Part shown: piece by piece, positions 5,252 to 32,852 of the stretch
How the letters are laid out: each line of letters begins with the position of its first letter
How positions within the stretch are numbered: position 1 is the stretch's first letter
Origin: an uncultured archaeon
GTDB taxonomy: Archaea > Aenigmatarchaeota > Aenigmatarchaeia > CAYQNF01
Assembly (NCBI GenBank): GCA_964418905.1
Contig: CAYQNF010000004.1
Coordinates: 1 to 33,477 of the forward strand
Direction: 5' to 3'
Length of the DNA: 33,477 nt
Notes under the pieces: generated by a model
The model's database searches: none
What the model saw: only the letters and a program-made list of their open reading frames with translations
Told to the model about the DNA's origin: nothing
Translations under genes and position numbers: made by a program

Positions 5252-5451
5252 ATATATCCTTACATATATTTGTTTTTACCAGATATTAAGCTTTTCTTTT
5301 TGCAATTTTATCAATTTCTTTATTAATATTTCCGAAACCTTTAAGAACGGACATTTTCTGGAAAAAGTACTTAAACTAAACTCAGGTCCAGATAGTGCGA
5401 ATAACCCTTATATAGCTAAATCGGGCATAACCAAAAATTGGTGAATAATAT

Positions 5452-6267: not shown

Positions 6268-6282
6268 AATCCCAACAAACCA

Positions 6283-7374: not shown

Positions 7375-8568
7375 ATGTCATTCAAAATAGGCTTGGTCGG
7401 AAAGCCGTTAGCAGGGAAGAGTACATTTTTCAAAGCATCAACTTTAGCAGATATTCCTATAGCCTCTTATCCATTTACAACTATAGACAAAAATGAAGGC
7501 GTGGCTTATGTGAGAGTAGATTGTCCGGCCAAAGAATTCGGTAAAACATGTGACCCAAAGTTCGGATTTTGTAAAAATAACAAAAGATTTGTTCCCGTAG
7601 AGCTAATAGACGTAGCCGGTCTAGTCCCAGGAGCCCACGAAGGAAAGGGAATGGGAAATAAATTTTTATCAGATCTAAACGAAGCAGATGTTTTAATCCA
7701 TGTAGTAGATTCTTCAGGAAAAACTAATGCAAAAGGAGAACCATGTGAAGATCATGATCCATGTGAAGACATAGAATTCCTAGAAAGAGAAATAGATATG
7801 TGGTATTTAGGCGTAATGAAAAGAGGCTGGGACAAAATTGTTAGATTGGCTAAACAAAAGGACGAAGATTTTCACGTTTCACTATCAGGACACCTAAACG
7901 CTTTTAGAATTACTAAGTATATAGCAAAAAACGCTATGATAGAATGTGGACTCGATCCAGAGAACTATGAGAATTGGGAAAATAAAGATCTTGAGAAATT
8001 GGCAGTAGAACTTAGGAAAAGAACCAAGCCGATGGTAATAGCTGCTAATAAAATGGATCTACCGTCCTCTAAAGAAAATATAAAGAAAATGAAAGAAAAA
8101 TTCCCGCACCTTATGATAATACCATGTTCAGGGGATATGGAACTTGCCTTAAGATCCGCAGCAAAAGCAGATCTCATTGATTATGTTCCAGGGGAATCAG
8201 ATTTCAAGATCAAAGGCGATCTAACAGATAAACAAAAGAAAGGTCTAGAGAAGATAAGAAATTCTTTAGAAAAATATGAATCCACAGGAGTACAAAAAGC
8301 ATTAGACTCCGCTGTTTTCGATTTCTTAGAATATATAGCAATATTCCCGGGCGGGGCCAATAAACTAGAAGATTCAGACGGCAACGTTTTACCGGATTGC
8401 TTCCTTTTACCGAAAGGGTCAACAGCTTTGGATTTTGCTTACGCTTTACATACCGACTTCGGTGATAATTTCCTATACGCTGTGGATGTCAGGACTAAGC
8501 AAAAAATAAGCAAAGACCACAAACTAAAGAACGGAGACATTATTGAGATAATAAACGCCGCTAAATGA
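7375..8568 (+). CDS. ychF: Obg-family P-loop NTPase, archaeal YchF-type with C-terminal TGS domain
   Basis: 397 aa. It has a P-loop (GLVGKPLAGKST), FTTI (G2), DVAGLV (G3), NKMD (G4), and a C-terminal TGS-like segment (GSTALDFAYALHTDFGDNFLYAV...LKNGDIIEI). Confidence 0.85.
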   Translation: MSFKIGLVGKPLAGKSTFFKASTLADIPIASYPFTTIDKNEGVAYVRVDCPAKEFGKTCDPKFGFCKNNKRFVPVELIDVAGLVPGAHEGKGMGNKFLSDLNEADVLIHVVDSSGKTNAKGEPCEDHDPCEDIEFLEREIDMWYLGVMKRGWDKIVRLAKQKDEDFHVSLSGHLNAFRITKYIAKNAMIECGLDPENYENWENKDLEKLAVELRKRTKPMVIAANKMDLPSSKENIKKMKEKFPHLMIIPCSGDMELALRSAAKADLIDYVPGESDFKIKGDLTDKQKKGLEKIRNSLEKYESTGVQKALDSAVFDFLEYIAIFPGGANKLEDSDGNVLPDCFLLPKGSTALDFAYALHTDFGDNFLYAVDVRTKQKISKDHKLKNGDIIEIINAAK

Positions 8569-8598: not shown

Positions 8599-9156
8599 AT
8601 GTTAAACAAACTAAGCGAAAAAGAGAAAGGTTATATCATAGGACTTTTCATAGGAGATGGTTACTCAAACTACCACAAGAATAGTAGACATTATAGAGTA
8701 AACTTCTATCTCAATTCAAAAAAAGACAAGGATGTAATAAACAAAATAACATATACCCTAGAAAAGATAGGACTTAATGTCTATTTCTACAAAGACAAGA
8801 GATCAAATACTGGAATAGTTAGAGTGAGCTCTAAGAATTTTATGAATACAATGGAAAATGAAGTTAATAACATAGACTCGTTGGGTGATACATCTGAGGA
8901 ATTTAAAATAGGACTGTTATCGGGATTTATAGACGCAGAAGGTTATGTAAACAACGGAGAAATCCAATTAACTCAAAAAGACAAAAATACTTTATTATTA
9001 TTCAAGAAAATAGCAGACGAGTTTGATATATCAAGAAAGTTCTGGTCTGCTAAGAACTATAAAGGTTCTGGATCAATTTGGCGCTTTAGGGTATCAACTA
9101 AGTTTAAATATCTCCCGCACAATTCTTGTAAAGTCAGGAGACAATATTCAACGTAG
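8599..9156 (+). CDS. Free-standing double-motif LAGLIDADG homing endonuclease
   Basis: 185 aa with two LAGLIDADG motifs (YIIGLFIGDGY and LLSGFIDAEGYV) about 100 aa apart. It is not embedded in an intron or intein. The stop TAG (9154-9156) overlaps the first 2 nt of the tRNA-iMet gene. Confidence 0.85.
   Translation: MLNKLSEKEKGYIIGLFIGDGYSNYHKNSRHYRVNFYLNSKKDKDVINKITYTLEKIGLNVYFYKDKRSNTGIVRVSSKNFMNTMENEVNNIDSLGDTSEEFKIGLLSGFIDAEGYVNNGEIQLTQKDKNTLLLFKKIADEFDISRKFWSAKNYKGSGSIWRFRVSTKFKYLPHNSCKVRRQYST
9103..9110 (+). promoter_or_regulatory. Consensus TATA box (TTTAAATA) for tRNA-iMet, inside the LAGLIDADG ORF
   Basis: AAGTTTAAATATC lies about 49 nt upstream of the mature tRNA 5' end. This implies a 5' leader of roughly 20-25 nt to be removed by RNase P. 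Confidence 0.4.
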
Positions 9157-12294: not shown

Positions 12295-12888
12295 ATGGTA
12301 AACAACATACAGACAATGAAGAGAGTAAGAAGGTTATTTTTGGAGAGTGTTAACTCTTTACAAGAAAAATTAGATTCTTTGGATTCTCCAAGAGTTATAG
12401 AAGAACCTATTAGAGATTATTTAAGAAGTGCTGCTATAAGCTTAAATCACGGAGGCCCGGGCCATTTACTAAAGGACGGATCCTCTAAAGAAAATTTATT
12501 TGAAAGGGGTTTATTTTCAGAATTACAAAACGAAGACGTAATACTCGAAAGGGATCACTACGATGCTATATTTTATACCAGCAAATGGAAAGAGTTAAGC
12601 GATGAACCAAAATGGGTTTACAAGGCAAAAAGAATAGTAAAGGATCCTAGTTTTATGCCTCAAGATTTTGGGACCAAAGAAGCATTGATTCTAAAAATAG
12701 ACATAATATTGAATTCCATGTATAGGTCTAGAGAGCTTGTGAGATATATAGTATATGCAAATGAAGGCAGGGAAGAAAAACCATATGGCTATGACTTTCT
12801 AGGTACCGTAAGGCCAGAAGAATTTAAGATATGGTCGGAAAGAGCAGAAAAATTCTTTGAAGATCAAGCAGAAAGATGGGATTTATAA
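12295..12888 (+). CDS. Hypothetical protein
   Basis: 197-aa ORF with ordinary, non-repetitive composition. No family recognised. Confidence 0.5.
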   Translation: MVNNIQTMKRVRRLFLESVNSLQEKLDSLDSPRVIEEPIRDYLRSAAISLNHGGPGHLLKDGSSKENLFERGLFSELQNEDVILERDHYDAIFYTSKWKELSDEPKWVYKAKRIVKDPSFMPQDFGTKEALILKIDIILNSMYRSRELVRYIVYANEGREEKPYGYDFLGTVRPEEFKIWSERAEKFFEDQAERWDL

Positions 12889-13779: not shown

Positions 13780-16248
13780 ATGGTAAAAATTGAGAAATTG
13801 ATCTTACATGGATTCAAATCATTTAGAAAGAAAACTGAACTCCCCTTTCCGGAAGGTTTTAATGTAGTTGCAGGACCAAACGGTTCCGGTAAAAGTAATA
13901 TAGTAGACGCTATGACTTTCGTTCTTGGTACTCTGAGTACTAAATCTCTACGTGCCGATAGATTAAACGAACTGGTTTATCATGGACATAAACAAAAAAG
14001 ACCTTCCAAGTTCGCAAAAGTTTCTCTCTATTTAGATAATGAAAGCGGGAAAATACCAACAGAAGACGATACGATAAAAGTTACAAGAAAGGTAAACAAA
14101 AAAGGTAACTCCGTCTATAAAATCAATGGTAAGATTGAAACCAGGAATAAAATTTTAGATCTTCTTTCATCTGCCAACGTTTTCCCAGATGGACACAACA
14201 TCATAATGCAGGGAGACATTACAAGAATTATAGAAATGAGTCCTGAACAAAGAAGAGAAATGATTGACGAAATATCCGGAATAGCTGATTACGATGATAA
14301 AAAAGTAAAAGCAGAAAAGGAATTGGAAAAAGTTGAAACAAGATTATCTGAGTTTGAAATTATAGTAAACGAAAGAGAAGAGATTCTAAACAAACTAAAG
14401 AAAGAGAGAGACGCCGCGATAAAATATGAAAAATTATCAAAAGAATTAAAGAAATTAAAAGCATCCTATTTGAAATCCAATATAGAAAAATACGAAAATG
14501 ACTTTGAGACCCTAGGAAAAGAGATAGAAGAAAAAACCAAATCCGTAGAGGAATTGCAAAATACTGTAGATGAAGCAGAAGACAAAATGGACAATATAGA
14601 GAAAAGAAACAGAGAGTTAAGCAACAAAATATTCGACTCTGCTAAAGACACAGAACTTATGAGAAAGCACGAAGAAGTAAAAAATGATATAATCAGAACT
14701 CAAGATAAAATAAAATTCAGTAGAAAAGAAATAGAAAGAATTGATCAAACAATAGAAAGACTACAAGAATTGAGCCACGGTGGCGGTAAGGCCGTTGAAA
14801 CGATTTTGGGTCTAAATAGGTCCGGTGTATACGGAACTGTTTCTCAACTAATCTCATTTGACGCAGAGCATTCAACTGCTCTAGAAGTTTGTGCAGGAGG
14901 ACATCTTTCAGATATAATAGTAAAAGATGATAGATTAGCACAAGAATGTATAAAGTACCTTAAGAGGGAAAAAATAGGAAGAGCTACATTTTTACCATTA
15001 AACAAAATAAAAGAAAGAAATCCTAGAGATTATGATTTAAGAAAGAAAGACGGTGCAATAGGCTGGGCTATAGAGCTTATTGATTTTGACAAAAAATATA
15101 TGTCCGCTCTTAAACATGTCTTCGGCAGTACATTGGTCGTAGAAGATATAGAAGCTGCCAGGAGGATAGGAATCGGGAAAACAAGAATGGTAACATTATC
15201 CGGAGATTTGATAGAAACCTCTGGGGCTATGATAGGTGGTCATTATAGAAAGAAAAAGCAAATGGACACGAAATCAGAAGTAAAGAAGAAAAAGGAGTTA
15301 GAAAATGACATAAACTCCCTACAAAACAAGCTTCAAGAATTAGAAAAGAAAGAAAAAGAGCTTTCTGATAAATTAGGAAACAAATCAAAAGATGTTCTAG
15401 ACCTAGAAAAACAAAGAAATACCCAAGACAAGGAATATGAAAAACTGAGAACCGAAAGGAAAAAGAACTATGAAAGGATGCTTAGAGAAAGAGAGAGACT
15501 CGGTAAAATAAAAATGGAAAGGGCTAAAGTGGAAGCCAAACTAGATAATTTCAAAGCAGAATTCCAAGATTACAAGGATCAAGAATCATTCTACAGAAGA
15601 GAAATACAAGAACTGGAAAAACAGGTGAGAGAAACTACAGAAGAGATAAACAAACTAGGCCCAATAAACCAGAAAGCTGTCGAAGAGTATGATATAATAA
15701 GAAATGAATTCACCGAGCTAAGCAAGAAATTTTACAAATTAAAAGAAGAGAGAATGGCAGTTCAAGAAATGATTGACGAAATTGAAACAAAGAGAAGGAA
15801 CACATTCATGAAAACTTTCAATGAAGTAAGAGACGAATTTGGGAGAATATTTGGGATAGCCACAGGAGGTACAGGAAATCTTGAATTAGAAGATTCCGAT
15901 GATATAACATCCGGGCTTCTGATAAGAGCAAACCCTGAAGGCAAATCTCTAATAAACATGGATTCTTTATCAGGAGGAGAAAAAACGATGGTTGCACTTT
16001 CATTCTTATTTTCATTGCAAAAAGTAAGACCGGCCCCATTTTATATTCTAGATGAAATTGATGCCGCTTTAGATAAGTCAAATACTGAAAAGATTGTAAA
16101 ATTAGTTCAAGAACTCAGTAAAGATGCACAATATGTAGTAATATCCCACAACGACCACACGATAAGTAACGCTGATCGTGTAGTTGGAGTAACAATGGCA
16201 GGTGGGGAATCCAAGATTCTTGGAGTAGAGTTAGCAAAGAGTAATTAA
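13780..16248 (+). CDS. smc: SMC chromosome segregation ATPase, short-arm form (822 aa)
   Basis: It has Walker A (GPNGSGKSN), QGDITRIIEMSPEQRREMIDEISG, a hinge (about aa 345-487, VYGTVSQLISFD...ATFLPLN...VTLSGDLIETSGAMIGG), the signature LSGGEKT and Walker B (FYILDEIDAALD). scpA and scpB lie downstream. Confidence 0.9.
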   Translation: MVKIEKLILHGFKSFRKKTELPFPEGFNVVAGPNGSGKSNIVDAMTFVLGTLSTKSLRADRLNELVYHGHKQKRPSKFAKVSLYLDNESGKIPTEDDTIKVTRKVNKKGNSVYKINGKIETRNKILDLLSSANVFPDGHNIIMQGDITRIIEMSPEQRREMIDEISGIADYDDKKVKAEKELEKVETRLSEFEIIVNEREEILNKLKKERDAAIKYEKLSKELKKLKASYLKSNIEKYENDFETLGKEIEEKTKSVEELQNTVDEAEDKMDNIEKRNRELSNKIFDSAKDTELMRKHEEVKNDIIRTQDKIKFSRKEIERIDQTIERLQELSHGGGKAVETILGLNRSGVYGTVSQLISFDAEHSTALEVCAGGHLSDIIVKDDRLAQECIKYLKREKIGRATFLPLNKIKERNPRDYDLRKKDGAIGWAIELIDFDKKYMSALKHVFGSTLVVEDIEAARRIGIGKTRMVTLSGDLIETSGAMIGGHYRKKKQMDTKSEVKKKKELENDINSLQNKLQELEKKEKELSDKLGNKSKDVLDLEKQRNTQDKEYEKLRTERKKNYERMLRERERLGKIKMERAKVEAKLDNFKAEFQDYKDQESFYRREIQELEKQVRETTEEINKLGPINQKAVEEYDIIRNEFTELSKKFYKLKEERMAVQEMIDEIETKRRNTFMKTFNEVRDEFGRIFGIATGGTGNLELEDSDDITSGLLIRANPEGKSLINMDSLSGGEKTMVALSFLFSLQKVRPAPFYILDEIDAALDKSNTEKIVKLVQELSKDAQYVVISHNDHTISNADRVVGVTMAGGESKILGVELAKSN

Positions 16249-16478
16249 TTTCCGATAAACTCAAAACGAGGTACTTCTTCGCCGTCGACTTCTACATTTT
16301 CCAGGAACATGTCCTTAGGTCTTACCCATATCTGGTCTTTTCCAAAATCTTCACTTTCGTACAATGCTATGTAAACGACAAGCTCTTCCAGAGTCTCGCT
16401 GTGTCTAGCAACTCCTATGACTTCATAATCCTTTCCTTTGTAATGTCTATATTTTCCCTTTCTTACTTCTTCTGACAT
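16245..16478 (-). CDS. DUF1653 family protein
   Basis: 77 aa. The pattern YRHYKGKDYEVIGVARHSETLEELVVYIALY...WVRPKDMF matches DUF1653. Confidence 0.7.
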   Translation of the reverse strand: MSEEVRKGKYRHYKGKDYEVIGVARHSETLEELVVYIALYESEDFGKDQIWVRPKDMFLENVEVDGEEVPRFEFIGN

Positions 16479-16536
16479 AGTCTATATTACACATAACAAT
16501 ATTTAACTTCTAAACATAATTCTTATAGTGATATAA

Positions 16537-17262
16537 TTGAATGAAGAGCAAATTCTAGAGTCCATAATAAAAGAATATTCATGGGAAACTGTACTTTATA
16601 ATATAGTCATAGCAGAGGACATGGACCCATGGGATATAGATATAGTGAAATTAGCAAACGCTTTTGCTAAATATATGAAGAAATTAAAGGAAATGGACTT
16701 TAGAATACCCGCAAAGGTAATATTAACCGCTTCAGTTTTCCTAAGAATGAAATCAGAAGCCCTAAAAATAGAAGAGGAAGAAAAGAAAGAGAGGAAAAAG
16801 AAAGACGAAGAGCCTCTAGATGTATCAGACGTTCCCGATATAGACAAACCGGCAAAAAGGAAACCCGTTAGAAAAGTTACCCTAAACGAACTAGTAAGTG
16901 CTCTGGAAAAGGCCTTTGAAGTGAAAGAAAAAAGGGATGTAAGAAGAAACACCGAACAGACCGTAATAGAAGTAGAAGAAGACAATATACACGAAAGGAT
17001 AGAAGATTTATACAATGAAATTATAGATTATATAGAAGAAAAGAGAGGGAAAAAAATACCATATTCTAAGTTAGTACAACAAGATGACTCTATGAAAGTA
17101 GTTAAGTCTTTCCTACCTTTGCTGCATTTAATGCAGGAAGGTAAAATAGACGCGGAGCAAGAAGAATTATACAAGGAAATTTATATTCATCTAAAGAACA
17201 AAAACGACGACGAAGAGGACAATGATTATGACGACGAAGGAAGAGAAGAAGAAACTGATTGA
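16537..17262 (+). CDS. scpA: Segregation and condensation protein A (kleisin)
   Basis: 241 aa. It has the N-terminal ScpA pattern (DPWDIDIVKLANAFAKYMK...VILTASVFLRMKSEAL), an acidic/basic linker, and a C-terminal winged-helix segment (FLPLLHLMQEGKI). It has a TTG start. Confidence 0.8.
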   Translation: MNEEQILESIIKEYSWETVLYNIVIAEDMDPWDIDIVKLANAFAKYMKKLKEMDFRIPAKVILTASVFLRMKSEALKIEEEEKKERKKKDEEPLDVSDVPDIDKPAKRKPVRKVTLNELVSALEKAFEVKEKRDVRRNTEQTVIEVEEDNIHERIEDLYNEIIDYIEEKRGKKIPYSKLVQQDDSMKVVKSFLPLLHLMQEGKIDAEQEELYKEIYIHLKNKNDDEEDNDYDDEGREEETD

Positions 17263-17764
17263 AGGCGCTCTCTTCATGGGAAACACGGTAAAGAAAGAAG
17301 AATTAATGAAGATAGCCGGATGTAATAAAGAAGAACTTCATGAACTAATGAGAGATCTAGAAAGAGATTATTTTGACAGAGCTATTCATATAATTGAGAC
17401 TGAAGACGAGTATAAAATGATGGTCGAGACTGAGATAAATGATAAAGTATCTCACTTGGCCCCACACGCCGATATATCACCGGGTCCTCTAAGGACATTG
17501 GCCATTATAGCATTCAAACAACCTGTAAAGCAAAGTGAAATAGTAAAGGTACAGGGAAATAGAGTTTATGATTATGTTAAAGAGTTAGAAAACAGAGGAC
17601 TAATAAAATCAAGTAAAGAAGGAAGAACGAAGGTTCTAGAAACGTCAGACGAGTTTGAAGACTATTTCGGATTAAGCCCAGAAGAGTTAAAAAGATTAAA
17701 GAAGAAGAAAACGAAGGAAGAAGACGGTGAGGACAATGCCGAAGAGGGAAATGACAAGTCTTGA
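17222..17764 (+). CDS. scpB: SMC-Scp complex subunit ScpB
   Basis: 180 aa. LIEGALFMG..., then TLAIIAFKQPVKQSEIVKVQGNRVYDYVKELENRGLI (second wH domain). It overlaps scpA by 41 nt. Confidence 0.8.
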   Translation: MIMTTKEEKKKLIEGALFMGNTVKKEELMKIAGCNKEELHELMRDLERDYFDRAIHIIETEDEYKMMVETEINDKVSHLAPHADISPGPLRTLAIIAFKQPVKQSEIVKVQGNRVYDYVKELENRGLIKSSKEGRTKVLETSDEFEDYFGLSPEELKRLKKKKTKEEDGEDNAEEGNDKS

Positions 17765-22562: not shown

Positions 22563-22597
22563 AAGGCTCTTAAATATTTTTATTGAAAATTATTACT

Positions 22598-22882
22598 ATG
22601 CTACCAGAACACATACCGAATACATATAGCGCAGGCGGAATAGAAATTAATCTATCCGATACACAAGCTGTTTTATTAGACTGTTTAAGAGAGATATCCC
22701 CAAAACCGAAAAGAACTGATCAATTGGCAGCATATAGTAGATTGGATACAAAAACTACCAGAAAAGAACTCTCTAGACTAAAAGAGAAAGGTTATGTTTC
22801 CAGAAAAAGAGGTAAATGGAAAGCTACTGTAAGCGGTATAGTTTATCTTAGAAAATACGAAAAAGTATTAGAAAGTGAATAA
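22598..22882 (+). CDS. Small winged-helix DNA-binding protein (paralogue 1)
   Basis: The track starts at TTG 22583. I prefer the ATG at 22598 because of the TATA spacing, which would make it leaderless. wHTH: RTDQLAAYSRLDTKTTRKELSRLKEKGYVSRKRGKWKATVSGIVYL. Confidence 0.65.
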   Translation: MLPEHIPNTYSAGGIEINLSDTQAVLLDCLREISPKPKRTDQLAAYSRLDTKTTRKELSRLKEKGYVSRKRGKWKATVSGIVYLRKYEKVLESE

Positions 22883-22884
22883 AG

Positions 22885-23160
22885 ATGGTATCTGTTAGAA
22901 GAATATCTAAGATGAGAACTCAGCTAAGAACTCTTGATTTTTTAGAAAATAGACTTGACGGGGATCCCATAAAGCCTGGTAAAGTAGCGGATGTTCTGGA
23001 CATGACGCCCCAAGCCATAGGAAAAATATTCAGGGAGTTAAGAGACTTAGGTTACGTTTCTACGTACGAAGGAAAAAGAAGGTCATATAAAATATCGCCA
23101 TCCGGCATTTTCGAAAAAAGAAGATTAGAAGAGAAAATTAGAAAATATGAAACTAATTAG
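22885..23160 (+). CDS. Small winged-helix DNA-binding protein (paralogue 2)
   Basis: 91 aa. PGKVADVLDMTPQAIGKIFRELRDLGYVSTYEGKRRSYKISPSGIF has the same architecture as the upstream gene, 2 nt away. Confidence 0.65.
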   Translation: MVSVRRISKMRTQLRTLDFLENRLDGDPIKPGKVADVLDMTPQAIGKIFRELRDLGYVSTYEGKRRSYKISPSGIFEKRRLEEKIRKYETN

Positions 23161-24829: not shown

Positions 24830-24994
24830 TTCCTCATACGCAGTTCTAACAGCGCTTTCAGCTCTTTCTATCCATTCGGGATCAGCATCTCTTCTAAGAT
24901 CTTTTCTAATTCTTGCAGAAGGAGTAAGTCTATCTGGATCTACTTCCAGCTCCTTATAGACGTTTGCTTTATTTTTAGAAATACTATCACTCAA
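24788..24994 (-). CDS. Hypothetical small charged protein
   Basis: 68 aa with a TTG start overlapping the stop of the upstream coiled-coil gene (8 nt). The 3' end overlaps the convergent peptidase gene by 42 nt. No family recognised. Confidence 0.4.
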   Translation of the reverse strand: MSDSISKNKANVYKELEVDPDRLTPSARIRKDLRRDADPEWIERAESAVRTAYEELEDRESQERDYKS

Positions 24995-26591
24995 TAACGG
25001 TTGGCTGCGAGACGCTTTTATTTCTAAAAGCCGAGGATAGTCTCTTCATATCTTCTTCTAATCTAAGAAGTCTAGATTCCAGGTTATGGACTTCATTAAG
25101 TAATTGGTTTTCTGTGGTTCCCTGCTCAAATTCTTTTATTTTCTCCATTACTGTTCTATTCATGTCACTTCCTAGAGATTTTATTCTATCCATTTCAAGT
25201 TTTACTAGCTTCATTAGCTTTCCTATATCATCCTTGTTTTTACCAACTTGATTTTCTAGAGCCGCAACATCTCCCATTTTTTGGTTCAGATCTTCTAGTC
25301 TTTCTTTATTTTCTACAACTCTTTCGGATAGGTCCTCAAGTAAATCTACATCCAACTTAGCCAACTTCTTGTTGACGTAAGAATCCAGATGCATCTTCAG
25401 TGAATCATAATCTTTTTTGACGTCTTCGAGCTTTTCTAACTGTAGGCCTACATCAACACGCCAGCTCTTGAATTTAGTCTTTATGCTATCGATCTCTTCT
25501 TCTATGTTTTCGAATTTCTCATCAGTGTTTTCTTCCCTAAGCCTTTCCGCTAGGAAATCATTCTTTAGTTCAGTATATTTGGAATCAACTAATTCTTTTA
25601 GCTCTTCTTTTGTGACAAAACTCTTATCTCCGTACTCGTCTAACTCGCTCTGTATTTTTCTTAGATCTGAACTCAAGGAAGATACTAGATCATCAGTGTC
25701 TCCTATCTTTTCATCCATTTCCTTTTCTACTTTCTTAACTTCTTTAGGAATAGTATCTAAGACTTCAGTCATCTGTTTCTGCATTTTTCCTGTTCTATCT
25801 TCTACCTCTTCAACGGTTTCAAGGAACTTCTTTCTTTCTTTCGTATAAGAATCAAACTCTTCTTCTATTTCTTTAACTCTTTTCTCCATTTTCTTTGGAT
25901 TTATCTTCATATTGTCTTTTAGTTCTGCAAGAGCCGCTTTAGTCACATTTTCTTTGACCTCATCAAGCATTTTCTCAACATCTTTGTCGCTCCAAGGACG
26001 TGATGCTTTGTCTATCTCTTTCCTCAAGGATGAAACTCTTTCATCTATCTTGGTCTCAAACTTCTCCTCAATAACAGAAGTGTCGACATCTCCTTTAGGA
26101 AGCTTTTTCTCCGATAAAATTTTATCTGTCTCTTCTTCTACAATACTTCTAACCTTATCCCAATCGACTTCAGTTTTCTTACTTCTACTAAAGAATCCAC
26201 CCTTTTCTTCCTTCTGTTTGGACACACCCTTTAGTCTTTCATCCACTTCTTCTTGTATTTTCTTTTCAAGATCGTCTTTTAGACTTTTTAGAGATTTTTT
26301 ATCTCCGCTAGCAGCACTCATCTCGGAAAGAGTATCATTAACAAATTTCTCTAGACTTATTACTCTGTCATATAAATCGCTGTAACCAGGAGCCTTTCCT
26401 GCTTCGTCCTTAGTGGCTTGGACTCCTTCAGGCGTCATCATTCCCAGAGATTCCATCTCATTTCTTATATTTTCAATTTCCTCTCTAAGTTCTATAGAAT
26501 TAAGTTTTTCTAGTAATTGTAGATCCTCTAGCTCATCTACCTTTTCCTGCAACTGTCTAAAATTTTCTTCTTCAGAACTTGCTTCTACCAT
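24987..26591 (-). CDS. Long acidic coiled-coil protein (534 aa), unknown function
   Basis: E/K/D/L-rich heptad-like sequence throughout. It has no TM segment, P-loop or Cys motif. A TATA-like ATTTATAAT lies about 25-30 nt upstream of the ATG. Confidence 0.7.
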   Translation of the reverse strand: MVEASSEEENFRQLQEKVDELEDLQLLEKLNSIELREEIENIRNEMESLGMMTPEGVQATKDEAGKAPGYSDLYDRVISLEKFVNDTLSEMSAASGDKKSLKSLKDDLEKKIQEEVDERLKGVSKQKEEKGGFFSRSKKTEVDWDKVRSIVEEETDKILSEKKLPKGDVDTSVIEEKFETKIDERVSSLRKEIDKASRPWSDKDVEKMLDEVKENVTKAALAELKDNMKINPKKMEKRVKEIEEEFDSYTKERKKFLETVEEVEDRTGKMQKQMTEVLDTIPKEVKKVEKEMDEKIGDTDDLVSSLSSDLRKIQSELDEYGDKSFVTKEELKELVDSKYTELKNDFLAERLREENTDEKFENIEEEIDSIKTKFKSWRVDVGLQLEKLEDVKKDYDSLKMHLDSYVNKKLAKLDVDLLEDLSERVVENKERLEDLNQKMGDVAALENQVGKNKDDIGKLMKLVKLEMDRIKSLGSDMNRTVMEKIKEFEQGTTENQLLNEVHNLESRLLRLEEDMKRLSSAFRNKSVSQPTVIE

Positions 26592-26711: not shown

Positions 26712-27275
26712 CTACAACAAACGGAACTTATTTACTACTTGATATAACTTATCTAGGCCTCCATATGTAGGCTCGCCTTTATTTCTTTTAAACCAGAATA
26801 TCCACATTCCGAATATGAATAATAACATCATCTCTCTCCAAAGTATGGTATGTACGAATTCAAGATTTCCCGGATAAAAAACTCCTACATATATCGTACT
26901 TGCAGTTCTAACCAGATTAGCCAGATAAACTAAAGGCAAACCTATCCCCAAAGCTTTCATTTTATTTTTTCCTTTCACGAAGGGTGTGGCCACAACTAAG
27001 GCAAAAAATGCTAACATCGCTTTCCAAGCTGTACAGTCTCTAATAAATACAAAAGTAAACGTGTCTGTAAATATCCTAATTCCCTCATGTTTTATTGAAA
27101 GTCCCAGTGCGGATAAAATAGCTGCAGTCTGGGACGCTGTTACTATCTGCATTCCCGTAGTATCTATATTTATCCATAGAAGAAAGTGCAGAGGTATTGC
27201 CAAAATCAAGAATTTTACAAGAAATGTTAACAAAGTCCAAGACTTTTTCTGAAATTCAGTAGGCTTATTGCTCAT
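26712..27275 (-). CDS. Exosortase/archaeosortase-family membrane protein (short form)
   Basis: 187 aa, polytopic. The core resembles the exo/archaeosortase signature: FVFIRDCTAWKAMLAFFAL (Cys), LANLVRTASTIY (Arg), FVHTILWRE (His). Confidence 0.6.
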   Translation of the reverse strand: MSNKPTEFQKKSWTLLTFLVKFLILAIPLHFLLWINIDTTGMQIVTASQTAAILSALGLSIKHEGIRIFTDTFTFVFIRDCTAWKAMLAFFALVVATPFVKGKNKMKALGIGLPLVYLANLVRTASTIYVGVFYPGNLEFVHTILWREMMLLFIFGMWIFWFKRNKGEPTYGGLDKLYQVVNKFRLL

Positions 27276-27276
27276 A

Positions 27277-27942
27277 TTAATTATTATATTTTCTAGTTAA
27301 TATTTCTCTTATTTTACTAGCCATTTTATCTCCAACACCATCTACTTTCTTAAGTTCTTCTTCCGATGCCGTAAATATATTCTCAACTGTTTTGAAGTGA
27401 AAGAGAAGCCTCTTGCTCATTTTAGTGCTAATATTTGGCAATCCTGCTACTATGAACTCCTTTAACTCATCGGGATCCATTTTAGATCTCTTCCCCCTTA
27501 TTTGAACGGGCCTATCTTCCTGAACCTGTTCTCTCTTGGCTATAGTAAATATAAGAGAAGCAGTATCCTCCTCATTATCAGTCCATATTATAGGTATTTT
27601 CTGATCCAACGCAATACTGGACAAAGCCCCGCGAATTGCATTGGGATGTATATTTCTCTCGCTTCTTCTTTTTCCTTCTATAACAAGAAGAGGTGCATCA
27701 AAACTATCGTCCATGTCCTTAAGCTGAGAAAATAAGCGACCGTCTATTATACTCTGAATAAAATCTTCGTAAGTCTTTCTCTCTATACCAACGCGGTCTG
27801 ATATAAGATAATCAGAAATTTTAAGCTGTTTCGGTTTAACAACGCAATCATTTTTCATTAATTCAAATACAACATCTGATGAGAACTCTCTGTTATCTAC
27901 AAATATTACAATCTCTTTGCTTGGTAAAATACTCTGAGCCAT
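27277..27942 (-). CDS. xpf: Short XPF-type ERCC4 nuclease with C-terminal (HhH)2
   Basis: 221 aa. IFVDNRE...SDYLISDRVGIERKTYEDF (ERCC4 motif with Ser where Gly is usual in GDY). C-terminal LPNIS...LKKVDGVGDKMASKI HhH pair. AGGTGA SD is present. Confidence 0.8.
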   Translation of the reverse strand: MAQSILPSKEIVIFVDNREFSSDVVFELMKNDCVVKPKQLKISDYLISDRVGIERKTYEDFIQSIIDGRLFSQLKDMDDSFDAPLLVIEGKRRSERNIHPNAIRGALSSIALDQKIPIIWTDNEEDTASLIFTIAKREQVQEDRPVQIRGKRSKMDPDELKEFIVAGLPNISTKMSKRLLFHFKTVENIFTASEEELKKVDGVGDKMASKIREILTRKYNN

Positions 27943-28026: not shown

Positions 28027-28722
28027 ATGACAAAGAAGAAAGCTAGACCTTTAACAGACGTAAAGGGAATCGGAAAGAACACAGCTAAAAAACTGAAGAA
28101 AAAAGGAATTAAGACAACTAAAGGATTAGCGGCTTCAAGACCTGAAACTGTAGCCAAGAAAATAGGCGTCTCAAAATCCACTGCAGAAAAATACGTAAGA
28201 AGAGCAAAATCTGTTTCTACTAAAAAACCTCTGAAATCTACATCAAAAAACTTTGATCCTCATGCTCCAGCTAAAGCATTCAACGCACTGAAAAAAGACG
28301 TAAAAAGAATAGGAAAGCTAGAAACTACAGTAAGTAACCTTGACAAGAAATTCTCAAAAGAAATAGATACGCTGAAATCCGACTTTGAGAAAGGTGATGA
28401 AAAACTTTCAAAATCAATAGATTCACTGGAGAAAACGTTGAGTAATGAAATTAAATCCTCAAATAAGGATCTAACAGGAAAAATAACAGATACCAAAAAA
28501 GATCTTTCTGATAAAGTGAAATCATTAGACAAAAAAACAAAAGATAAGATGTCGTCCATGGAAAAAGACCTGAAAAAGGAAATAAAAACCGTAGATGACA
28601 AAGCGAACAAAAGAATGGATAAAATAGAAGGCGCAATATCCCAACTACACAAATCGGTCAGATCCCTTTCAGATAACTGGGACGCTTTCACTAACTCACT
28701 TCTTCTAGACGATGAGAAGTAA
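28027..28722 (+). CDS. HhH DNA-binding protein with hendecad-repeat coiled coil
   Basis: 231 aa. It has N-terminal LTDVKGIGKNTAKKLKKKGIKTTKGLAA...VAKKIGVSKSTAEKY (HhH), a basic linker, then about 10 consecutive 11-residue repeats. GAGGTG SD is present. Confidence 0.7.
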   Translation: MTKKKARPLTDVKGIGKNTAKKLKKKGIKTTKGLAASRPETVAKKIGVSKSTAEKYVRRAKSVSTKKPLKSTSKNFDPHAPAKAFNALKKDVKRIGKLETTVSNLDKKFSKEIDTLKSDFEKGDEKLSKSIDSLEKTLSNEIKSSNKDLTGKITDTKKDLSDKVKSLDKKTKDKMSSMEKDLKKEIKTVDDKANKRMDKIEGAISQLHKSVRSLSDNWDAFTNSLLLDDEK

Positions 28723-28772
28723 CTACCTCTGTGGTTACTTTTTCATTTTTTACCACTCTTGTTATTCGACAG

Positions 28773-28780
28773 TATATATA
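28773..28780 (+). promoter_or_regulatory. TATA box TATATATA
   Basis: It is centred about 29 nt upstream of the ATG at 28806. This supports the shorter start for the wHTH gene. Confidence 0.45.
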
Positions 28781-28805
28781 CCGGTACCTAAGACAACTCT
28801 ATTAC

Positions 28806-29417
28806 ATGAATTACCAAAGCCGACTAGAAGGCCTAAGAATAGCAAAAGAATGCGGTTTTCATGTAGAAGAGGAAGAAAACGGTTATGTAGCAACTACAAC
28901 CTTACCTTCCCATTATCTAACTGAAAATCTTCCAGATTTCTTATACAAAACGGAGATATCAGTATCTGGAAAGGAAGTTAGACTTAGATCAGAGGATCCT
29001 TTCATGATGGCTCTAGTAGCCGATGAAATAACAGAAAGCGATCCCTTTGATCCAGAAAACGTGGAAGGACAGTTATCTAGATACCCTCAGACTCTTGAGG
29101 AGCTATCTGATAAATTATGTCTTTCTAGGAAAACTGTTTCTTCTGAATTGGACAAGTTAAAGGATTCAGGCTTTGTCAGAGAGGAAGATGGTATATATTA
29201 TCATTCTTCCTGGAATGAGGATAGCTTACCGAGATCTCTAAAAGAGAGATCTATAGAAGCCTCAAAAACTATGGACGAGCTTGATTCTCTTCTGGACAAA
29301 TCCCCAGAAGGAACAATTCTAGAAGAACAATTAGTCTCTCTTAGGGCAAAATTTGCAGACAAGAAAATCTTCTACAAGGCTTTGGCTCTTGGAGGAGTTC
29401 AAAATGTTGGTAAATAA
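28806..29417 (+). CDS. Hypothetical wHTH-containing protein
   Basis: The track starts at GTG 28731, but those first 25 residues are F/Y/T/L-rich and contain the TATA box. I use the ATG at 28806. Central wHTH: QTLEELSDKLCLSRKTVSSELDKLKDSGFVREEDGIYY. Confidence 0.6.
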   Translation: MNYQSRLEGLRIAKECGFHVEEEENGYVATTTLPSHYLTENLPDFLYKTEISVSGKEVRLRSEDPFMMALVADEITESDPFDPENVEGQLSRYPQTLEELSDKLCLSRKTVSSELDKLKDSGFVREEDGIYYHSSWNEDSLPRSLKERSIEASKTMDELDSLLDKSPEGTILEEQLVSLRAKFADKKIFYKALALGGVQNVGK

Positions 29418-29856
29418 AAGGAAAGTAGAGAAAAAAATAAAGCAAAGGGACAAATCCCTTGAAAAAATGGACGCAGATCTTAAATCAAGGCTAAGAAAAT
29501 ACAGGAAAGGAATAGAAAAAAGTTCAGTTAGCTTTGAAGCAAAAAAATACGCATTATCTGTTGCAGAAGACCTAGAAAGGAAATACGAACAATGCCAAAC
29601 AACCCACGAAATACAAAAATTCTCAACAGAGGCTATGATAATATTAGGGAAACATTACGAAAGACTGGAAGAATTAGAACAGGAATTTGGTCCCTATGAA
29701 GATGCTATAGCTAAGATGTATCCGGCTGAAAGAATAAAGAAAGCCGAAGCTTTGGAAGTAAGGTCCGCGCAGAAGACGATTGACCATCTAGATGACATGC
29801 TTGGTTCAATGCCGAATTTCCATACTCTACTTTCTTCGACTAATGTAAGAAGATAG
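29404..29856 (+). CDS. Helical protein, possible ESCRT-III/PspA-superfamily member
   Basis: 150 aa from the ATG at 29404 (GGAGGAG SD 9-15 nt upstream; the track start at 29353 lies inside the previous gene). It has a basic N-terminal helix pair (KIKQRDKSLEKMDADLKSRLRKYRKGIEK...EAKKYALSVAEDLERKYEQ) and a less basic C-terminal half. The assignment is tentative. Confidence 0.45.
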   Translation: MLVNKRKVEKKIKQRDKSLEKMDADLKSRLRKYRKGIEKSSVSFEAKKYALSVAEDLERKYEQCQTTHEIQKFSTEAMIILGKHYERLEELEQEFGPYEDAIAKMYPAERIKKAEALEVRSAQKTIDHLDDMLGSMPNFHTLLSSTNVRR

Positions 29857-29868
29857 GAGGGGAATTTT

Positions 29869-30480
29869 ATGTTCGGATTTTTCAATAAAAATCCAAAAAA
29901 CGAAGGTAAGGAAGCTTTGAAGGAACTGAGGAAAGAAAAAAGAAGAATATCCTCAGTAAACTCTAGAATCCGAAAGAAGATGAAGAGAACAGAAAGGGAG
30001 AGACATAATCTCCAATTCATGGCAGAGAAAAACTCCCAAAACGGAAACGGCGAAGAAGCCGTACTGAAAGCTTACCAAGCAGAATTAAAAGACAGACAAA
30101 TAGCAGAGCTAAGAAACAGACAACATGAACTAGTAAGATATGACGGTCGTCTGGAAATATTGATAACAGGACTTGAAACAGAACTCATGAAAGGTGATCT
30201 GAAAGTAGGTCCCATAGTAAATGAAGACCTCATAGAGAGAATAGAAAAATATGTGGATTTCAAAAACGATATTACTGAAACTGATGACAGCGTAGATTTC
30301 GAATACTTGGAATCTACTCTAGACGGATTAGGTGAACCCGAATTACCAGACACGACATACGACGCAAAAAAGATGGAAGTAGACGGTCTCACTGGTTATA
30401 CGCCAGAATTTAGAAACTGGGCGGACAAGTTGAGATCTGATCTAGTTGAAGTAGACGTAGACCCATCTTACAAGGGATAA
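29869..30480 (+). CDS. ESCRT-III (Snf7/CdvB)/PspA-superfamily-like protein
   Basis: 203 aa with a GGAGGGG SD. It has an N-terminal MFGFFNK hydrophobic motif. Residues 1-100 are a strongly basic helical hairpin with a Snf7-like pattern (EALKELRKEKRRI...AEKNSQNGNGEEAVLKAYQAELKDRQIAELRNRQHEL...LEILITGLE). Residues 115-203 are strongly acidic. Confidence 0.55.
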   Translation: MFGFFNKNPKNEGKEALKELRKEKRRISSVNSRIRKKMKRTERERHNLQFMAEKNSQNGNGEEAVLKAYQAELKDRQIAELRNRQHELVRYDGRLEILITGLETELMKGDLKVGPIVNEDLIERIEKYVDFKNDITETDDSVDFEYLESTLDGLGEPELPDTTYDAKKMEVDGLTGYTPEFRNWADKLRSDLVEVDVDPSYKG

Positions 30481-30481
30481 T

Positions 30482-30667
30482 ATGTTAGACCAGATCTTGG
30501 ACTATGTAGACACTGCTAAATATGTCTATCCTATTCTCCAAGAGAGAGCTATAGAAACGGCCAGAAATCCAGCATTTTGGACCGAAGTAGGGCTAGCCCT
30601 CACAGCGAGGGAGGCCCTACACATAGCCGTTAAAAAATATCAAGACTGGAAGCTTGGTAGATATTAG
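30482..30667 (+). CDS. Hypothetical 61-aa protein
   Basis: Its ATG is 1 nt after the upstream stop. It is helical and unrecognised. Confidence 0.4.
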   Translation: MLDQILDYVDTAKYVYPILQERAIETARNPAFWTEVGLALTAREALHIAVKKYQDWKLGRY

Positions 30668-30715: not shown

Positions 30716-30886
30716 ATGACTACAATAGCTATTAAACCAGAAACAAAAAAGGTATTGGACAGTATTGGCTCTAAAGGTGAAAGTTATGATGATATAATAA
30801 ATGAACTTTTGGAAGTCTATGTACAATTCCTTAAAAGACAGGAAGATATTCTGGAGAATGACAAATTCGTAGAGCTGAAATTATGA
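30716..30886 (+). CDS. Type II antitoxin (archaeal VapB/RelB-like 'putative antitoxin' family; 56 aa, absent from the ORF track)
   Basis: Hand translation gives MTTIAIKPETKKVLDSIGSKGESYDDIINELLEVYVQFLKRQEDILENDKFVELKL*. AGGTGA lies 6 nt upstream. The stop overlaps the toxin ATG (ATGA). Confidence 0.7.
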   Translation: MTTIAIKPETKKVLDSIGSKGESYDDIINELLEVYVQFLKRQEDILENDKFVELKL

Positions 30887-31161
30887 AAGTACTAATTTCC
30901 AAAACTGCCCTGAAATATCTAAACAAATTAGATAAAGACACTTCCGATAGAATAAAAGGGAAGTTAGAAATACTATCAGAAAACCCACTTTCTCCTCTTT
31001 TAGATGTCAAGAAAATAAAATATTCTAAAAAGGAGAAAAATAAAACGGTTTACAGGTTAAGAGTAGGAAATTACAGAATAGTTTATTACCTGAGAAAAGG
31101 AATTATAAAAATAACAGATATATTTCACAGAAGTGATGGCTATGATCATTTATTTAGATAG
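30883..31161 (+). CDS. relE: Type II toxin, RelE/ParE family
   Basis: 92 aa. The pattern ...DRIKGKLEILSENP...VYRLRVGNYRIVYYLRKGIIKITDIFHRSDGY matches RelE/ParE. Confidence 0.8.
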   Translation: MKVLISKTALKYLNKLDKDTSDRIKGKLEILSENPLSPLLDVKKIKYSKKEKNKTVYRLRVGNYRIVYYLRKGIIKITDIFHRSDGYDHLFR

Positions 31162-31199: not shown

Positions 31200-32240
31200 A
31201 TGAAGATATTACAATTGGGTTACTATCCTCCCCAGGTAGGCGGAATAGCTAATCATTTAGAAACCTTATCAAAAGGCCTGTCCAAAAAGCATGAAATAAC
31301 AGTAGTAACCTACGGCAAGATGAATAGGAAAGACAAGAATATAGAAATAATAGAAATTCCAGTAATAAACAAGACTCCTTTCAGAGGTATTTCATATTCA
31401 TTGGGACTGTTGAAATATTTAATAAAAAACGGTAAGAACTTCGATATAATTCATGCACACGGCGTACAGCCTGCAGGTACTATCACTTCATATTATGGAA
31501 AATTCTCTAAAGCTCCTGTTGTTATAACATCACACGGTTCTGATTTATTGAAATGGGCAGATCGGTTTGGAAATGCTTATTTCAAAAATGTTTGCAATAA
31601 CTCATCTAAATTAATTTGCGTAAGTGAATATCTAAAGAAGAAAGCTCTTTCCATAGGAATAAAGGAAGAAAAAATAAAAATCATAAGAGAAGGATTAGAT
31701 ATGCCAAAACTCTCTTCCAAGACTAAACTGAGAAAGAAATTGAAAATAAAGAATAATACTATACTCTTCGTTGGGGCGCTGATTGACGCAAAAAGACCTG
31801 ATTTAGTAGTAGAATGTGCCGAAAACAGCGTTTATGACTTCGTAATCATAGGCGACGGGCCTCTCAGAAGCAGATTAGAAGACGTTTCTCCTGATAATGT
31901 TACCTTCTTAGGCTATTTGGACCATAAAAAGACTCTAGAATATATGAAAGCCTCTGATCTAGTAGTTATACCTTCAGATTATGAAGGATTTGGACTGGTA
32001 GCTTATGAATCATTATCATTAAAGACTCCGGTAGTATCAAGACCGGTAGCTGCTCTGAAAGAAATGTTACCGAAAGAAGCTATGAGTGAAAATCTAAACG
32101 ATAAAATAAATGAAGTAATGGAAAACAAAAAACTTCAGAAAAAAATAATTAAGGATTTTAATAAAAATAAAAACTCGGCAAAAGATATGATAAAAGAGAC
32201 TGAAAGCTTATACAAAAACATTCTAGATAATTTTTCTTAA
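31200..32240 (+). CDS. Glycosyltransferase family 4 (GT-B, group 1)
   Basis: 346 aa. N-terminal GGIANHLETL, and a C-terminal E-x7-E region (PSDYEGFGLVAYESLSLKTPVV). Confidence 0.85.
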   Translation: MKILQLGYYPPQVGGIANHLETLSKGLSKKHEITVVTYGKMNRKDKNIEIIEIPVINKTPFRGISYSLGLLKYLIKNGKNFDIIHAHGVQPAGTITSYYGKFSKAPVVITSHGSDLLKWADRFGNAYFKNVCNNSSKLICVSEYLKKKALSIGIKEEKIKIIREGLDMPKLSSKTKLRKKLKIKNNTILFVGALIDAKRPDLVVECAENSVYDFVIIGDGPLRSRLEDVSPDNVTFLGYLDHKKTLEYMKASDLVVIPSDYEGFGLVAYESLSLKTPVVSRPVAALKEMLPKEAMSENLNDKINEVMENKKLQKKIIKDFNKNKNSAKDMIKETESLYKNILDNFS

Positions 32241-32852
32241 TGCGTATTTTTCATAGTTTTGAAGCAAGGCAAGTGTGTAAACATCAGCCGCCTTTCTTAC
32301 ACTAGTTTGGTTATTACCGTCTATGAATATGACATTATCAACCATGGCAACTCTTGTTCTGTTATTAGGCGAAAATCTGACTAGTATCCTAATACCTGTC
32401 AAATTCTCATAATTATCTGGTTCTCCGTTTAGATATGTAACTACTCCATTTTCTAAATTTCTTCTGTATGTATTATCATAACCGAGCCATTGATAGACCT
32501 TGCTAGTTCTAAAGGCTACATCAAAAGCCGCAGTAGATAAAGCTCCACATTCTTGATTTTCTACATCACAATTCTTAGGTATTCCTATAGTAACAAAGTC
32601 TGGACTGTCTAATGAAGCGTTGACTACAGTTTTAACATCGGGATGTATAGGTACATCCACTATCTCCTCTAAAGGGGCTGAAAACACAAATTCAGTATCT
32701 CTTACGACCAATTTATGACTATCTGGTGTGTTTTCTCCTTCCGGATTGGCCCAAGGACTAGTCTCAATCATTAGATAAATTCCAAGAATTAGTGAAACTA
32801 CTAATGCAAAAATTATTAGGATGTTCTTGTTTTCCATTTGATCACTTATCAT
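32223..32852 (-). CDS. Hypothetical N-terminally anchored extracellular protein
   Basis: 209 aa with a single N-terminal TM (ILIIFALVVSLILGIYLMI). It lies directly downstream of the S-layer gene on the same strand. Confidence 0.5.
   Translation of the reverse strand: MISDQMENKNILIIFALVVSLILGIYLMIETSPWANPEGENTPDSHKLVVRDTEFVFSAPLEEIVDVPIHPDVKTVVNASLDSPDFVTIGIPKNCDVENQECGALSTAAFDVAFRTSKVYQWLGYDNTYRRNLENGVVTYLNGEPDNYENLTGIRILVRFSPNNRTRVAMVDNVIFIDGNNQTSVRKAADVYTLALLQNYEKYALRKII

Follow-up and report, generated by a model that had tools for sequence, protein, structure and literature searches.

This analysis concerns a cluster of five genes in a 33,477-nucleotide stretch of an archaeal contig (CAYQNF010000004.1; "the window" below means this whole stretch), and above all the gene encoding p203, a protein of 203 residues that an earlier reading, made from the sequence alone, had placed in the ESCRT-III/PspA superfamily. 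Our results suggest that p203 is, on balance, probably a highly derived ESCRT-III-type subunit that is homologous to ESCRT-III. The evidence comes from the genomic context of its only homologue, P0003, from the predicted structure of p203 and its matches in structure searches, and from weak similarity of the N-terminal hairpin to ESCRT-III sequences. In the most economical interpretation, p203 and P0003 represent a very divergent ESCRT-III-like family which works with an ATPase of the CdvC/Vps4 type. The wider claim, that this is the first ESCRT-III/Vps4-type system in DPANN archaea, with a derived subunit, a new C-terminal ATPase-docking motif and a separate winged-helix (wH) adaptor, is a tentative one to which we give somewhat less than an even chance.

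The p203 family and its CdvC-like neighbour

Searches of the Pfam and NCBIfam libraries assigned p203 to no family, and a word-index search gave no relative. When 1.84 billion cluster representatives were searched exhaustively with phmmer, the sole relative returned was P0003 (205 residues, 28% identity, E 6.2e-10). The match is near full-length, extending over residues 7–194 of p203 and 14–200 of P0003, and as judged from their sequences the two proteins are full-length homologues. The family thus consists of two sequences in about 15 billion proteins. A search with the pairwise alignment of the two (A1) added no further members, none were found in GTDB genomes or IMG/VR, and tblastn against plasmids gave no family member either. 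A degenerate DNA scan for the C-terminal motif TGYTP[EK]F[RQ]N produced zero matches in GTDB genomes and in IMG/VR, and six in JGI metagenomes, all of them chance matches in unrelated open reading frames (ORFs).

P0003 is encoded on a Logan contig of 1,124 bp (SRR22388135_2412701 from run SRR22388135, here L001), whose GC content of 35% is like that of the window. Its gene is followed, on the same strand and 6 nt past the stop codon, by a truncated ATPase gene (Table 1). When the truncated product was compared with 18,950 NCBIfam models, the top match was NF041006, "cell division protein CdvC" (E 4.6e-16), with a score far below the 650-bit cutoff for full-length proteins. This match pairs residues 15–157 with model positions 23–172 and runs collinearly across the N-terminal domain and the linker into the Walker A region, whereas the models for FtsH, PAN and Cdc48 cover only residues 80–157. 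Pfam recognised a classic AAA domain at its beginning (E 4.5e-11), and CdvC (4lcb) was the only one among the PDB matches listed that reached the N-domain. Residues 2–41 are TPR-like (PP5 TPR1, E 7e-5). MIT domains are TPR-like three-helix bundles, and the N-domain of the L001 ATPase would fit a bundle of this type. A small archaeal genome carries, as a rough estimate, a handful of classic AAA genes, and the chance that one of them lies next to P0003 in the same orientation is, equally roughly, about 0.5%. GTDB genomes searched with the L001 ATPase as synteny anchor gave no close relatives.

With regard to structure, the AlphaFold2 model of p203 has a mean predicted local distance difference test (pLDDT) score of 66. 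The predicted alpha1–alpha2 hairpin, with 48 residues in each helix, is modelled with confidence and is followed by helices at residues 119–137 and 144–153 (low confidence), an acidic low-confidence linker and a helix at residues 179–192, and the order of these helical elements in the model matches that of ESCRT-III. A Foldseek search of the PDB placed structures of the ESCRT-III superfamily at ranks 1–22 and in about 38 of the top 50 positions, including CHMP1B (the best match, E 0.009), Vipp1, Asgard ESCRT-IIIB, PspA, CHMP2A/3, Snf7 and CdvB. The PspA hairpin 4whe could be superposed on the model with a root-mean-square deviation of 1.7 Å over 99 columns. The product of the neighbouring gene, p150, served as a helical control and showed no such enrichment; since this protein matched unrelated bundles, the enrichment appears to be specific to p203. 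The ESCRT-III-type architecture proposed for p203 in the sequence-only reading, a hairpin with shorter helices, is in this way supported at moderate strength by the model together with the Foldseek enrichment.

The sequence features on which that reading had relied were largely recovered. Both the MFGFF N-terminus and KNSQNGNGEEAVLKAYQAELK are present in p203. The net charge in successive stretches of 25 residues is +4, +7, −2, +1, −3, −7, −5, −3 and +1, which amounts to +11 over residues 1–50, close to neutral over residues 51–100 and −18 over residues 101–200. The C-terminal half is therefore acidic as claimed, and the strongly basic region, said to cover the first 100 residues, is confined to about the first 50. 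This basic-then-acidic split and the N-terminal motif agree with ESCRT-III. MFGFF is a candidate membrane-inserting helix 0; at the corresponding end P0003 starts with MFERI (MFERIKSSF), CHMP3 with MGLFGK and Snf7 with MWSSLFGW (sequences checked against the PDB).

The features conserved in A1 are the N-terminal MF, the motif G-N-x-E-E at the hairpin tip (G59, N60, E62 and E63 invariant), YDG(R/K)L in helix 2 and TGYTP(E/K)F(R/Q)N...DL at the C-terminus. The last of these belongs to the block LTGYTPEFRNWADKLRSDL, in which T175, G176, Y177, T178, P179, F181, N183, D191 and L192 are invariant. Judged by its position, the helix formed by this block may be the site at which the N-domain of the ATPase docks, and would be MIM-like in that respect. 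MIM1 has the consensus (D/E)xxLxxRLxxL(K/R) and MIM2 is proline-rich; the pattern TGYTPxFxNxxxxxxxDL of the p203 helix fits neither consensus.

Moreover, weak signals linking the family to ESCRT-III were obtained at the sequence level. Snf7 was the only Pfam match of P0003 at E≤1, with an E-value of 0.011 for the full-length protein and 0.0017 when it was trimmed to the hairpin; residues 22–105 were aligned with model positions 3–79. When the A1 profile was run against PDB sequences, CHMP3 ranked second (E 0.06), and the hairpin matched both CHMP3 and Snf7 weakly and in register. Comparison of A1 with five eukaryotic ESCRT-III sequences by hhalign gave a score of 27.6 (P 0.002) over residues 1–82 against 1–78, a score reached by 0 of 120 column shuffles, the maximum of which was 20.9. 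The five sequences are virtually the same as those of PDB chains wherever such chains cover them. The corresponding comparison with PspA and Vipp1, both unchecked against the PDB, gave P 0.42, and the PspA-type affinity suggested in the sequence-only reading was not borne out. Neither p203 nor P0003 had a Pfam match to PspA_IM30, and phmmer searches of the PDB with each of the two proteins returned nothing relevant.

Weighing ESCRT-III descent against other explanations

A number of observations weigh against ESCRT-III descent. No match passes a curated threshold: the Snf7 score of P0003 was 15.8–18.5 bits, short of the gathering score of 27.3, and p203 on its own matched neither Snf7 (PF03357) nor PspA_IM30 (PF04012) even at E≤10. 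Of the Snf7 and PspA profile matches that the sequence-only reading proposed as a check, the one to Snf7 was recovered, below threshold and by way of P0003, and the one to PspA_IM30 was not. P0003 also matched the NCBIfam model NF011161 (E 0.0035, residues 14–93 against model positions 7–85), an unrelated-looking helical family labelled "haloacid dehalogenase superfamily protein" (PRK14562) and probably made up of archaeal translin-like helical proteins; so far as sequence matches go, this shows that weak helical matches of such size are not unique to Snf7. A kinesin fragment topped the ranking of PDB sequences by the A1 profile. Other ORFs of the window gave hhalign scores against the ESCRT-III set of 27.4 (NFACT) and 24.4 (a glycosyltransferase), compared with 24.2 for p203 alone, and because these natural decoys match or beat p203 alone, the hhalign test discriminates weakly and is weak evidence. 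The structural model was predicted from a single sequence, and its residues 113–174 have pLDDT values below 50. No PDB match of p203 in Foldseek reaches E 1e-3. In the viral structure library BFVD, generic helical proteins reach similar E-values (a Megaviridae Snf7 is found at rank 9), and for this reason the Foldseek E-values themselves carry little weight. With only two members in the family, covariation and synteny give nothing. As to the ATPase on L001, Vps4/CdvC proteins have an N-terminal MIT domain, a single classic AAA domain and a C-terminal helix; its gene is cut by the contig end after 158 codons, before the sequence that would show a single AAA domain and this helix, and the similarity of its N-domain to four MIT domains by hhalign (P 0.026) lies within the range of shuffles. 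Finally, a search of the window detected no classic AAA gene.

It should be underlined that this last result bears differently on the window and on the family. The sequence-only reading had remarked on the absence of a Vps4/CdvC partner, which holds for the window; on L001, however, P0003 is followed at a distance of 6 nt by the CdvC-like gene. The protein family to which p203 belongs is thus probably not characterised by lack of a Vps4 partner.

According to the main rival explanation, p203 and P0003 are coiled-coil hairpin proteins restricted to their lineage and of no ESCRT-III descent, which resemble ESCRT-III only in the way that any long antiparallel helical hairpin with a charged tail would; the operon would then consist of a winged helix-turn-helix (wHTH) regulator and small proteins, for instance associated with the nucleoid or the envelope. 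Because every sequence signal is below threshold, we rate this explanation as unlikely and nonetheless as one to be taken seriously. It is further favoured by the natural decoys that equal the hhalign score, by the second, unrelated sub-threshold family match (NF011161), by Foldseek E-values of 0.009 or worse that generic helical proteins in BFVD approach, and by the lack of an ATPase in the window. What it leaves unexplained is why a gene that best matches CdvC begins 6 nt past the sole homologue on the same strand, why the PDB matches of p203 are concentrated in one superfamily when the equally helical p150 shows nothing similar, and why the N-terminal alignment is in register and includes an ESCRT-III-like N-terminal motif.

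The operon could also be cargo of a DPANN mobile element or virus rather than a core cellular system, an explanation that is compatible with p203 being ESCRT-III-like and that would account for the rarity of the operon and for the toxin–antitoxin pair next to it. Four of the five products have no homologue or only one, and the genes for the DUF7557/VapB-like antitoxin and the ParE toxin follow directly. Against this, PHROG matches were limited to generic HhH or coiled-coil models, IMG/VR and plasmids gave nothing, neither an integrase nor a capsid gene lies nearby, the GC content and codon usage are those of the rest of the contig, and the flanking genes are of a housekeeping kind (ERCC4 nuclease, exosortase-family protein, glycosyltransferase). 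We consider mobile cargo highly improbable. More improbable still, in our judgement, is that p203 belongs to the bacterial branch of the superfamily as a stress protein like PspA/Vipp1 (IM30), protecting membranes without a Vps4-type ATPase. Vipp1 and PspA are indeed among the top Foldseek matches, 4whe giving the best local superposition, the window lacks an ATPase, and PspA is present in some archaea (PMC7619361). These points are countered by the hhalign result for the unchecked PspA and Vipp1 sequences, far from the P 0.002 of the ESCRT-III set, by the absence of a PspA_IM30 match in either family member, and by the pairing of the homologue with a CdvC-like ATPase, which bacterial PspA systems do not have (PMC7619361).

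Gene layout, neighbouring genes and host

The five ORFs are all located on the forward strand (Table 1) and encode, in order, products of 231, 203, 150, 203 and 61 residues. The lengths of the wHTH protein and of p150 are counted from ATG, and a longer version of the former, starting from GTG at 28731, is possible. The junctions described in the sequence-only reading, a 14-nt overlap, a 12-nt gap and a 1-nt gap, were confirmed. The window has a stop-triplet frequency of 0.062 and a GC content of 36%, and an equally long open frame would arise by chance with a probability of 4e-7 to 7e-5 in the case of the four larger ORFs (150–231 codons) and of 0.02 in that of the 61-codon ORF. When a codon model was derived from twelve conserved window genes, in-frame scores were +0.26 to +0.37 per codon for all five ORFs, and the scores of the other two frames were negative. 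p150 and p203 each have a ribosome-binding site of the GGAGG type upstream, and the first gene is preceded by GAGGTG. The five ORFs are real genes with the codon usage of the genome.

Table 1. Positions of the genes and sequence features discussed (window coordinates unless L001 is given)
Feature	Position	Strand	Description and basis
HhH/coiled-coil gene	28027..28722	+	HhH_5 at aa 7–58, lysine-rich linker, C-terminal coiled coil, isoelectric point (pI) 9.95
T-runs cTTTTTcaTTTTTTa	28737..28752	+	15 nt past the stop of gene 1; read from the sequence
TATATATA box	28773..28780	+	26–33 nt upstream of the wHTH ATG; read from the sequence
wHTH gene	28806..29417	+	Acidic 203-aa protein, winged helix at aa ~89–131, helical C-terminus
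p150	29404..29856	+	Orphan, all-helical (2–39, 44–62, 67–105, 108–135), basic N-terminus
p203, probable derived ESCRT-III-like protein	29869..30480	+	Family, model, structure search, context of the homologue
MFGFF hydrophobic motif, Lys-rich stretch after it	29869..29883	+	Sequence and A1 alignment
Predicted alpha1–alpha2 hairpin, aa 9–57 and 61–108	29893..30192	+	AlphaFold2 block, pLDDT mostly 78–94 over aa 11–100
C-terminal block LTGYTPEFRNWADKLRSDL, aa 174–192	30388..30444	+	Best-conserved block of the family; helix in the model
p61, orphan 61-aa ORF	30482..30667	+	1 nt past the p203 stop; in-frame codon score positive
Truncated CdvC/Vps4-like AAA ATPase gene	L001:649-1122	Same as P0003	Starts 6 nt past the P0003 stop

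The sequence-only reading described five tightly packed genes; the ORFs and their junctions stand, and the first gene is probably a unit of its own. The spacer of 83 nt between this gene and the wHTH gene contains T-runs that resemble an archaeal oligo-T terminator, as well as the TATATATA box, which by the standard geometry of archaeal promoters is a candidate promoter from which a leaderless or short-leader mRNA for wHTH, p150, p203 and p61 might be produced. These two elements make it probable that the helix-hairpin-helix (HhH)/coiled-coil gene is transcribed apart from the other four, which probably form an operon extending from 28806 to 30667.

The HhH/coiled-coil protein matched Pfam HHH_5 (E 4.5e-10), its remaining matches being generic coiled coil, and the N-terminal HhH of RadA in NCBIfam; it is a probable non-specific DNA binder. 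The sequence-only reading had compared it with CdvA, which has a PRC barrel, a coiled coil and a C-terminal peptide that binds ESCRT-III; of such traits the protein shares only the coiled coil and the likely binding of DNA. The HhH_5 domain was confirmed, and it forms the N-terminal domain, where no PRC barrel was detected; membership in a CdvA-like module is doubtful in view of this and of the terminator and promoter context of the gene. An 84-nt spacer separates the gene from a divergent one (27277–27942, − strand) for a short archaeal XPF/Hef-type ERCC4 nuclease (ERCC4 E 1.2e-33, C-terminal HhH2), and owing to this divergent arrangement the HhH/coiled-coil protein may belong to DNA repair rather than to the downstream operon. 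Used as synteny anchor, the nuclease had no close relatives in GTDB genomes.

The second gene encodes a wHTH protein, as the sequence-only reading stated. Pfam identified HTH_5 (ArsR-type, E 5e-5) and, more weakly, MarR, TrmB and HTH_20; NCBIfam gave weak Lrs14 and ArsR matches, and the best PDB match was MJ223 (E 0.097). ESCRT-II-like adaptors bind ESCRT-III, next to which they are encoded, and contain one or two wH domains; in the present protein a single wH domain was detected, the EAP30 and Vps25 families gave no match, and a search of IMG/VR returned nothing. By analogy, and by its place upstream of p203 in the same operon, the protein could be either an ESCRT-II-like wH adaptor or an ordinary regulator.

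p150 had no homologue in the word-index search. Its AlphaFold2 model is a confident four-helix structure (pLDDT 78), for which the top Foldseek matches were ISD11/LYR proteins and miscellaneous helical bundles, with Vipp1 found only at a probability below 0.1. Comparison by hhalign gave P 0.17 with the p203 family (A1) and a score of 15.9, which is background level, with the ESCRT-III set. Taken together, these results give no support to p150 as an ESCRT-III paralogue, which it had been suggested to be. The last gene of the operon, p61, stands where the CdvC-like gene stands on L001. It has no detectable relatives, it matched nothing in Pfam, NCBIfam, PHROG or PADLOC, and it has no similarity to the N-domain of the CdvC-like ATPase or to MIT domains.

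The cluster was also considered as a defence system and as a prophage, and both were rejected, the PADLOC matches being coiled-coil noise only and the PHROG matches only generic HhH and coiled coil. Directly past the operon lies a toxin–antitoxin pair (30716–31161, + strand) with genes that overlap by 4 nt, encoding a DUF7557/VapB-like antitoxin (E 2.8e-10) and a toxin of the ParE family (E 1.4e-10).

Genes for aIF2-alpha, a Hel308-type helicase, a short SMC together with ScpA and ScpB, NFACT, an archaeosortase-like protein of the exosortase family and an S-layer fragment are present in the window and identify the organism as archaeal. The best GTDB relatives of an Obg-like GTPase (7375–8568) are found in Woesearchaeota, Pacearchaeota and Nanoarchaeia metagenome-assembled genomes at 55–59% identity; going by this protein, the host belongs to the Nanoarchaeota within DPANN, is Woesearchaeota-like and has no close sequenced relative, which explains why the synteny searches were empty. 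A free-standing ORF resembling LAGLIDADG-type homing endonucleases (8599–9156, + strand; LAGLIDADG_3, E 3.4e-15) is located 30 nt past the GTPase gene and outside any intron or intein. The SMC (822 residues, with hinge and both head halves) is unusually short, and its gene is followed by those for the ScpA-like protein, ScpB and NFACT (13780–17764, + strand), a compact condensin operon that fits a reduced genome. Downstream of the helicase gene, two small ORFs for MarR-like winged-helix proteins, 99 and 91 residues long, lie in tandem (22583–23160, + strand). The exosortase-family gene (26712–27275, − strand; Exosortase_EpsH, E 3.9e-10) encodes a short membrane protein and adjoins a gene (24987–26591, − strand) for a very acidic coiled-coil protein of 534 residues (pI 4.8), which has weak SMC/Rad50-type matches only and contains a GGFFSRSKK motif. 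ORFs without a Pfam family, of 113–299 residues, are found at 5064–6267, 6244–7143, 12295–12888 and 32223–32852, and orphan genes are common on the whole contig, not just in the cluster.

Possible mechanism and comparison with known systems

If p203 is an ESCRT-III-type subunit, a mechanism may be proposed by analogy. Membrane binding would fall to the hydrophobic N-terminus (MFGFF) together with the basic hairpin, hairpins packed side by side would build filaments, and the acidic C-terminal half would hold the monomer closed in an autoinhibited state. The conserved C-terminal helix (TGYTPxFxN...DL) would recruit an AAA ATPase of the CdvC/Vps4 type, by which the polymer would be remodelled or disassembled. 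In the present genome the gene for this ATPase may lie outside the 33-kb window, or it may have been lost, with the 61-residue ORF in its place. The upstream wH protein might serve as adaptor or nucleator in the manner of ESCRT-II, a role that has been suggested at other archaeal ESCRT loci, or it might regulate the operon. Vesicle budding, membrane repair or host-cell contact would more likely be the role of such a system than division, which is less likely because DPANN archaea are reported to divide with FtsZ (PMC7617429).

ESCRT-III homologues have been described in all major archaeal lineages but DPANN (PMC7619361), from which ESCRT proteins are stated to be absent (PMC10117752), and the literature searched contained no report of a DPANN ESCRT-III. 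Should our reading be correct, p203 would represent a known kind of system in strongly derived form, in a lineage for which ESCRT has been reported absent, and the pair of derived ESCRT-III and CdvC-like ATPase in Nanoarchaeota-like genomes would fill the DPANN gap. It would provide a candidate membrane-remodelling machine of ultra-small, host-attached archaea, and would bear on the presence of ESCRT in the last archaeal common ancestor (PMC10936438). Either ESCRT would be ancestral to all archaea including DPANN, where it diverged past recognition, or episymbionts would have acquired it for vesicle formation or contact with host membranes. If ESCRT-III-like proteins are able to diverge past the reach of current profiles, published calls of absence may be underestimates. 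A caveat is the rarity of the family, with two known members, which may be sporadic, lineage-specific or mobile and not a general DPANN trait.

Compared with PspA/Vipp1 (IM30), p203 shares the superfamily fold of a hairpin with further helices and an amphipathic or hydrophobic N-terminus, and these proteins are among its top structural matches. It differs from them in lacking profile similarity (neither the hhalign comparison nor PF04012) and in that its relative is paired with a Vps4-type ATPase. The crenarchaeal CdvA–CdvB–CdvC system resembles the present one in combining an ESCRT-III-like protein with a CdvC-like ATPase, here in the relative, and the DNA-binding coiled-coil protein encoded near p203 recalls the DNA binding of CdvA. 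Unlike in the crenarchaeal system, there is no PRC-barrel CdvA, the wH domain is carried by a protein of its own and not by the ESCRT-III-like one, transcription of the HhH/coiled-coil gene is probably separate, and DPANN are reported to divide with FtsZ.

The similarity to eukaryotic ESCRT-III (CHMP3/Vps24, Snf7/CHMP4, CHMP1B; PF03357) is more extensive in p203 itself, which has a length of about 200 residues, an N-terminal hydrophobic motif, a basic alpha1–alpha2 hairpin, a G-N/K motif at the tip, an acidic C-terminal half and a terminal helix. Eukaryotic ESCRT-III proteins provide its best structural matches together with the weak in-register sequence matches. In contrast to these proteins, the family scores under the Pfam gathering threshold, TGYTPxFxN is neither a MIM1 nor a MIM2, and alpha3–alpha5 are of low confidence in the model.

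The closest known systems are archaeal loci for ESCRT-III and Vps4 in lineages other than TACK and Asgard ("Main", Thermoplasmata and Halo_adaptin groups; PMC10936438). In archaeal ESCRT loci vps4 is preceded by the ESCRT-III gene, which in turn commonly has a gene for a wH protein upstream (PMC10936438); by such gene-order logic Makarova et al. (2024) recognised a "derived ESCRT-III" upstream of vps4 in the haloarchaeal Halo_adaptin loci (PMC10936438), and this protein is the nearest counterpart of p203. The window displays the order of wH upstream of ESCRT-III, and L001 that of ESCRT-III upstream of vps4. As in those loci, a helical-hairpin protein is encoded directly upstream of a CdvC/Vps4-like gene (on L001), additional helical or coiled-coil proteins are found in the locus, and the identification depends on structure prediction and gene neighbourhood instead of sequence. 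The present system differs from them in its DPANN host, where ESCRT was reported absent, in having no Vps4 gene in the locus of the window, in the family size of two, and in the unrelated helical gene p150 that lies between the wH gene and the gene for the ESCRT-III-like protein.

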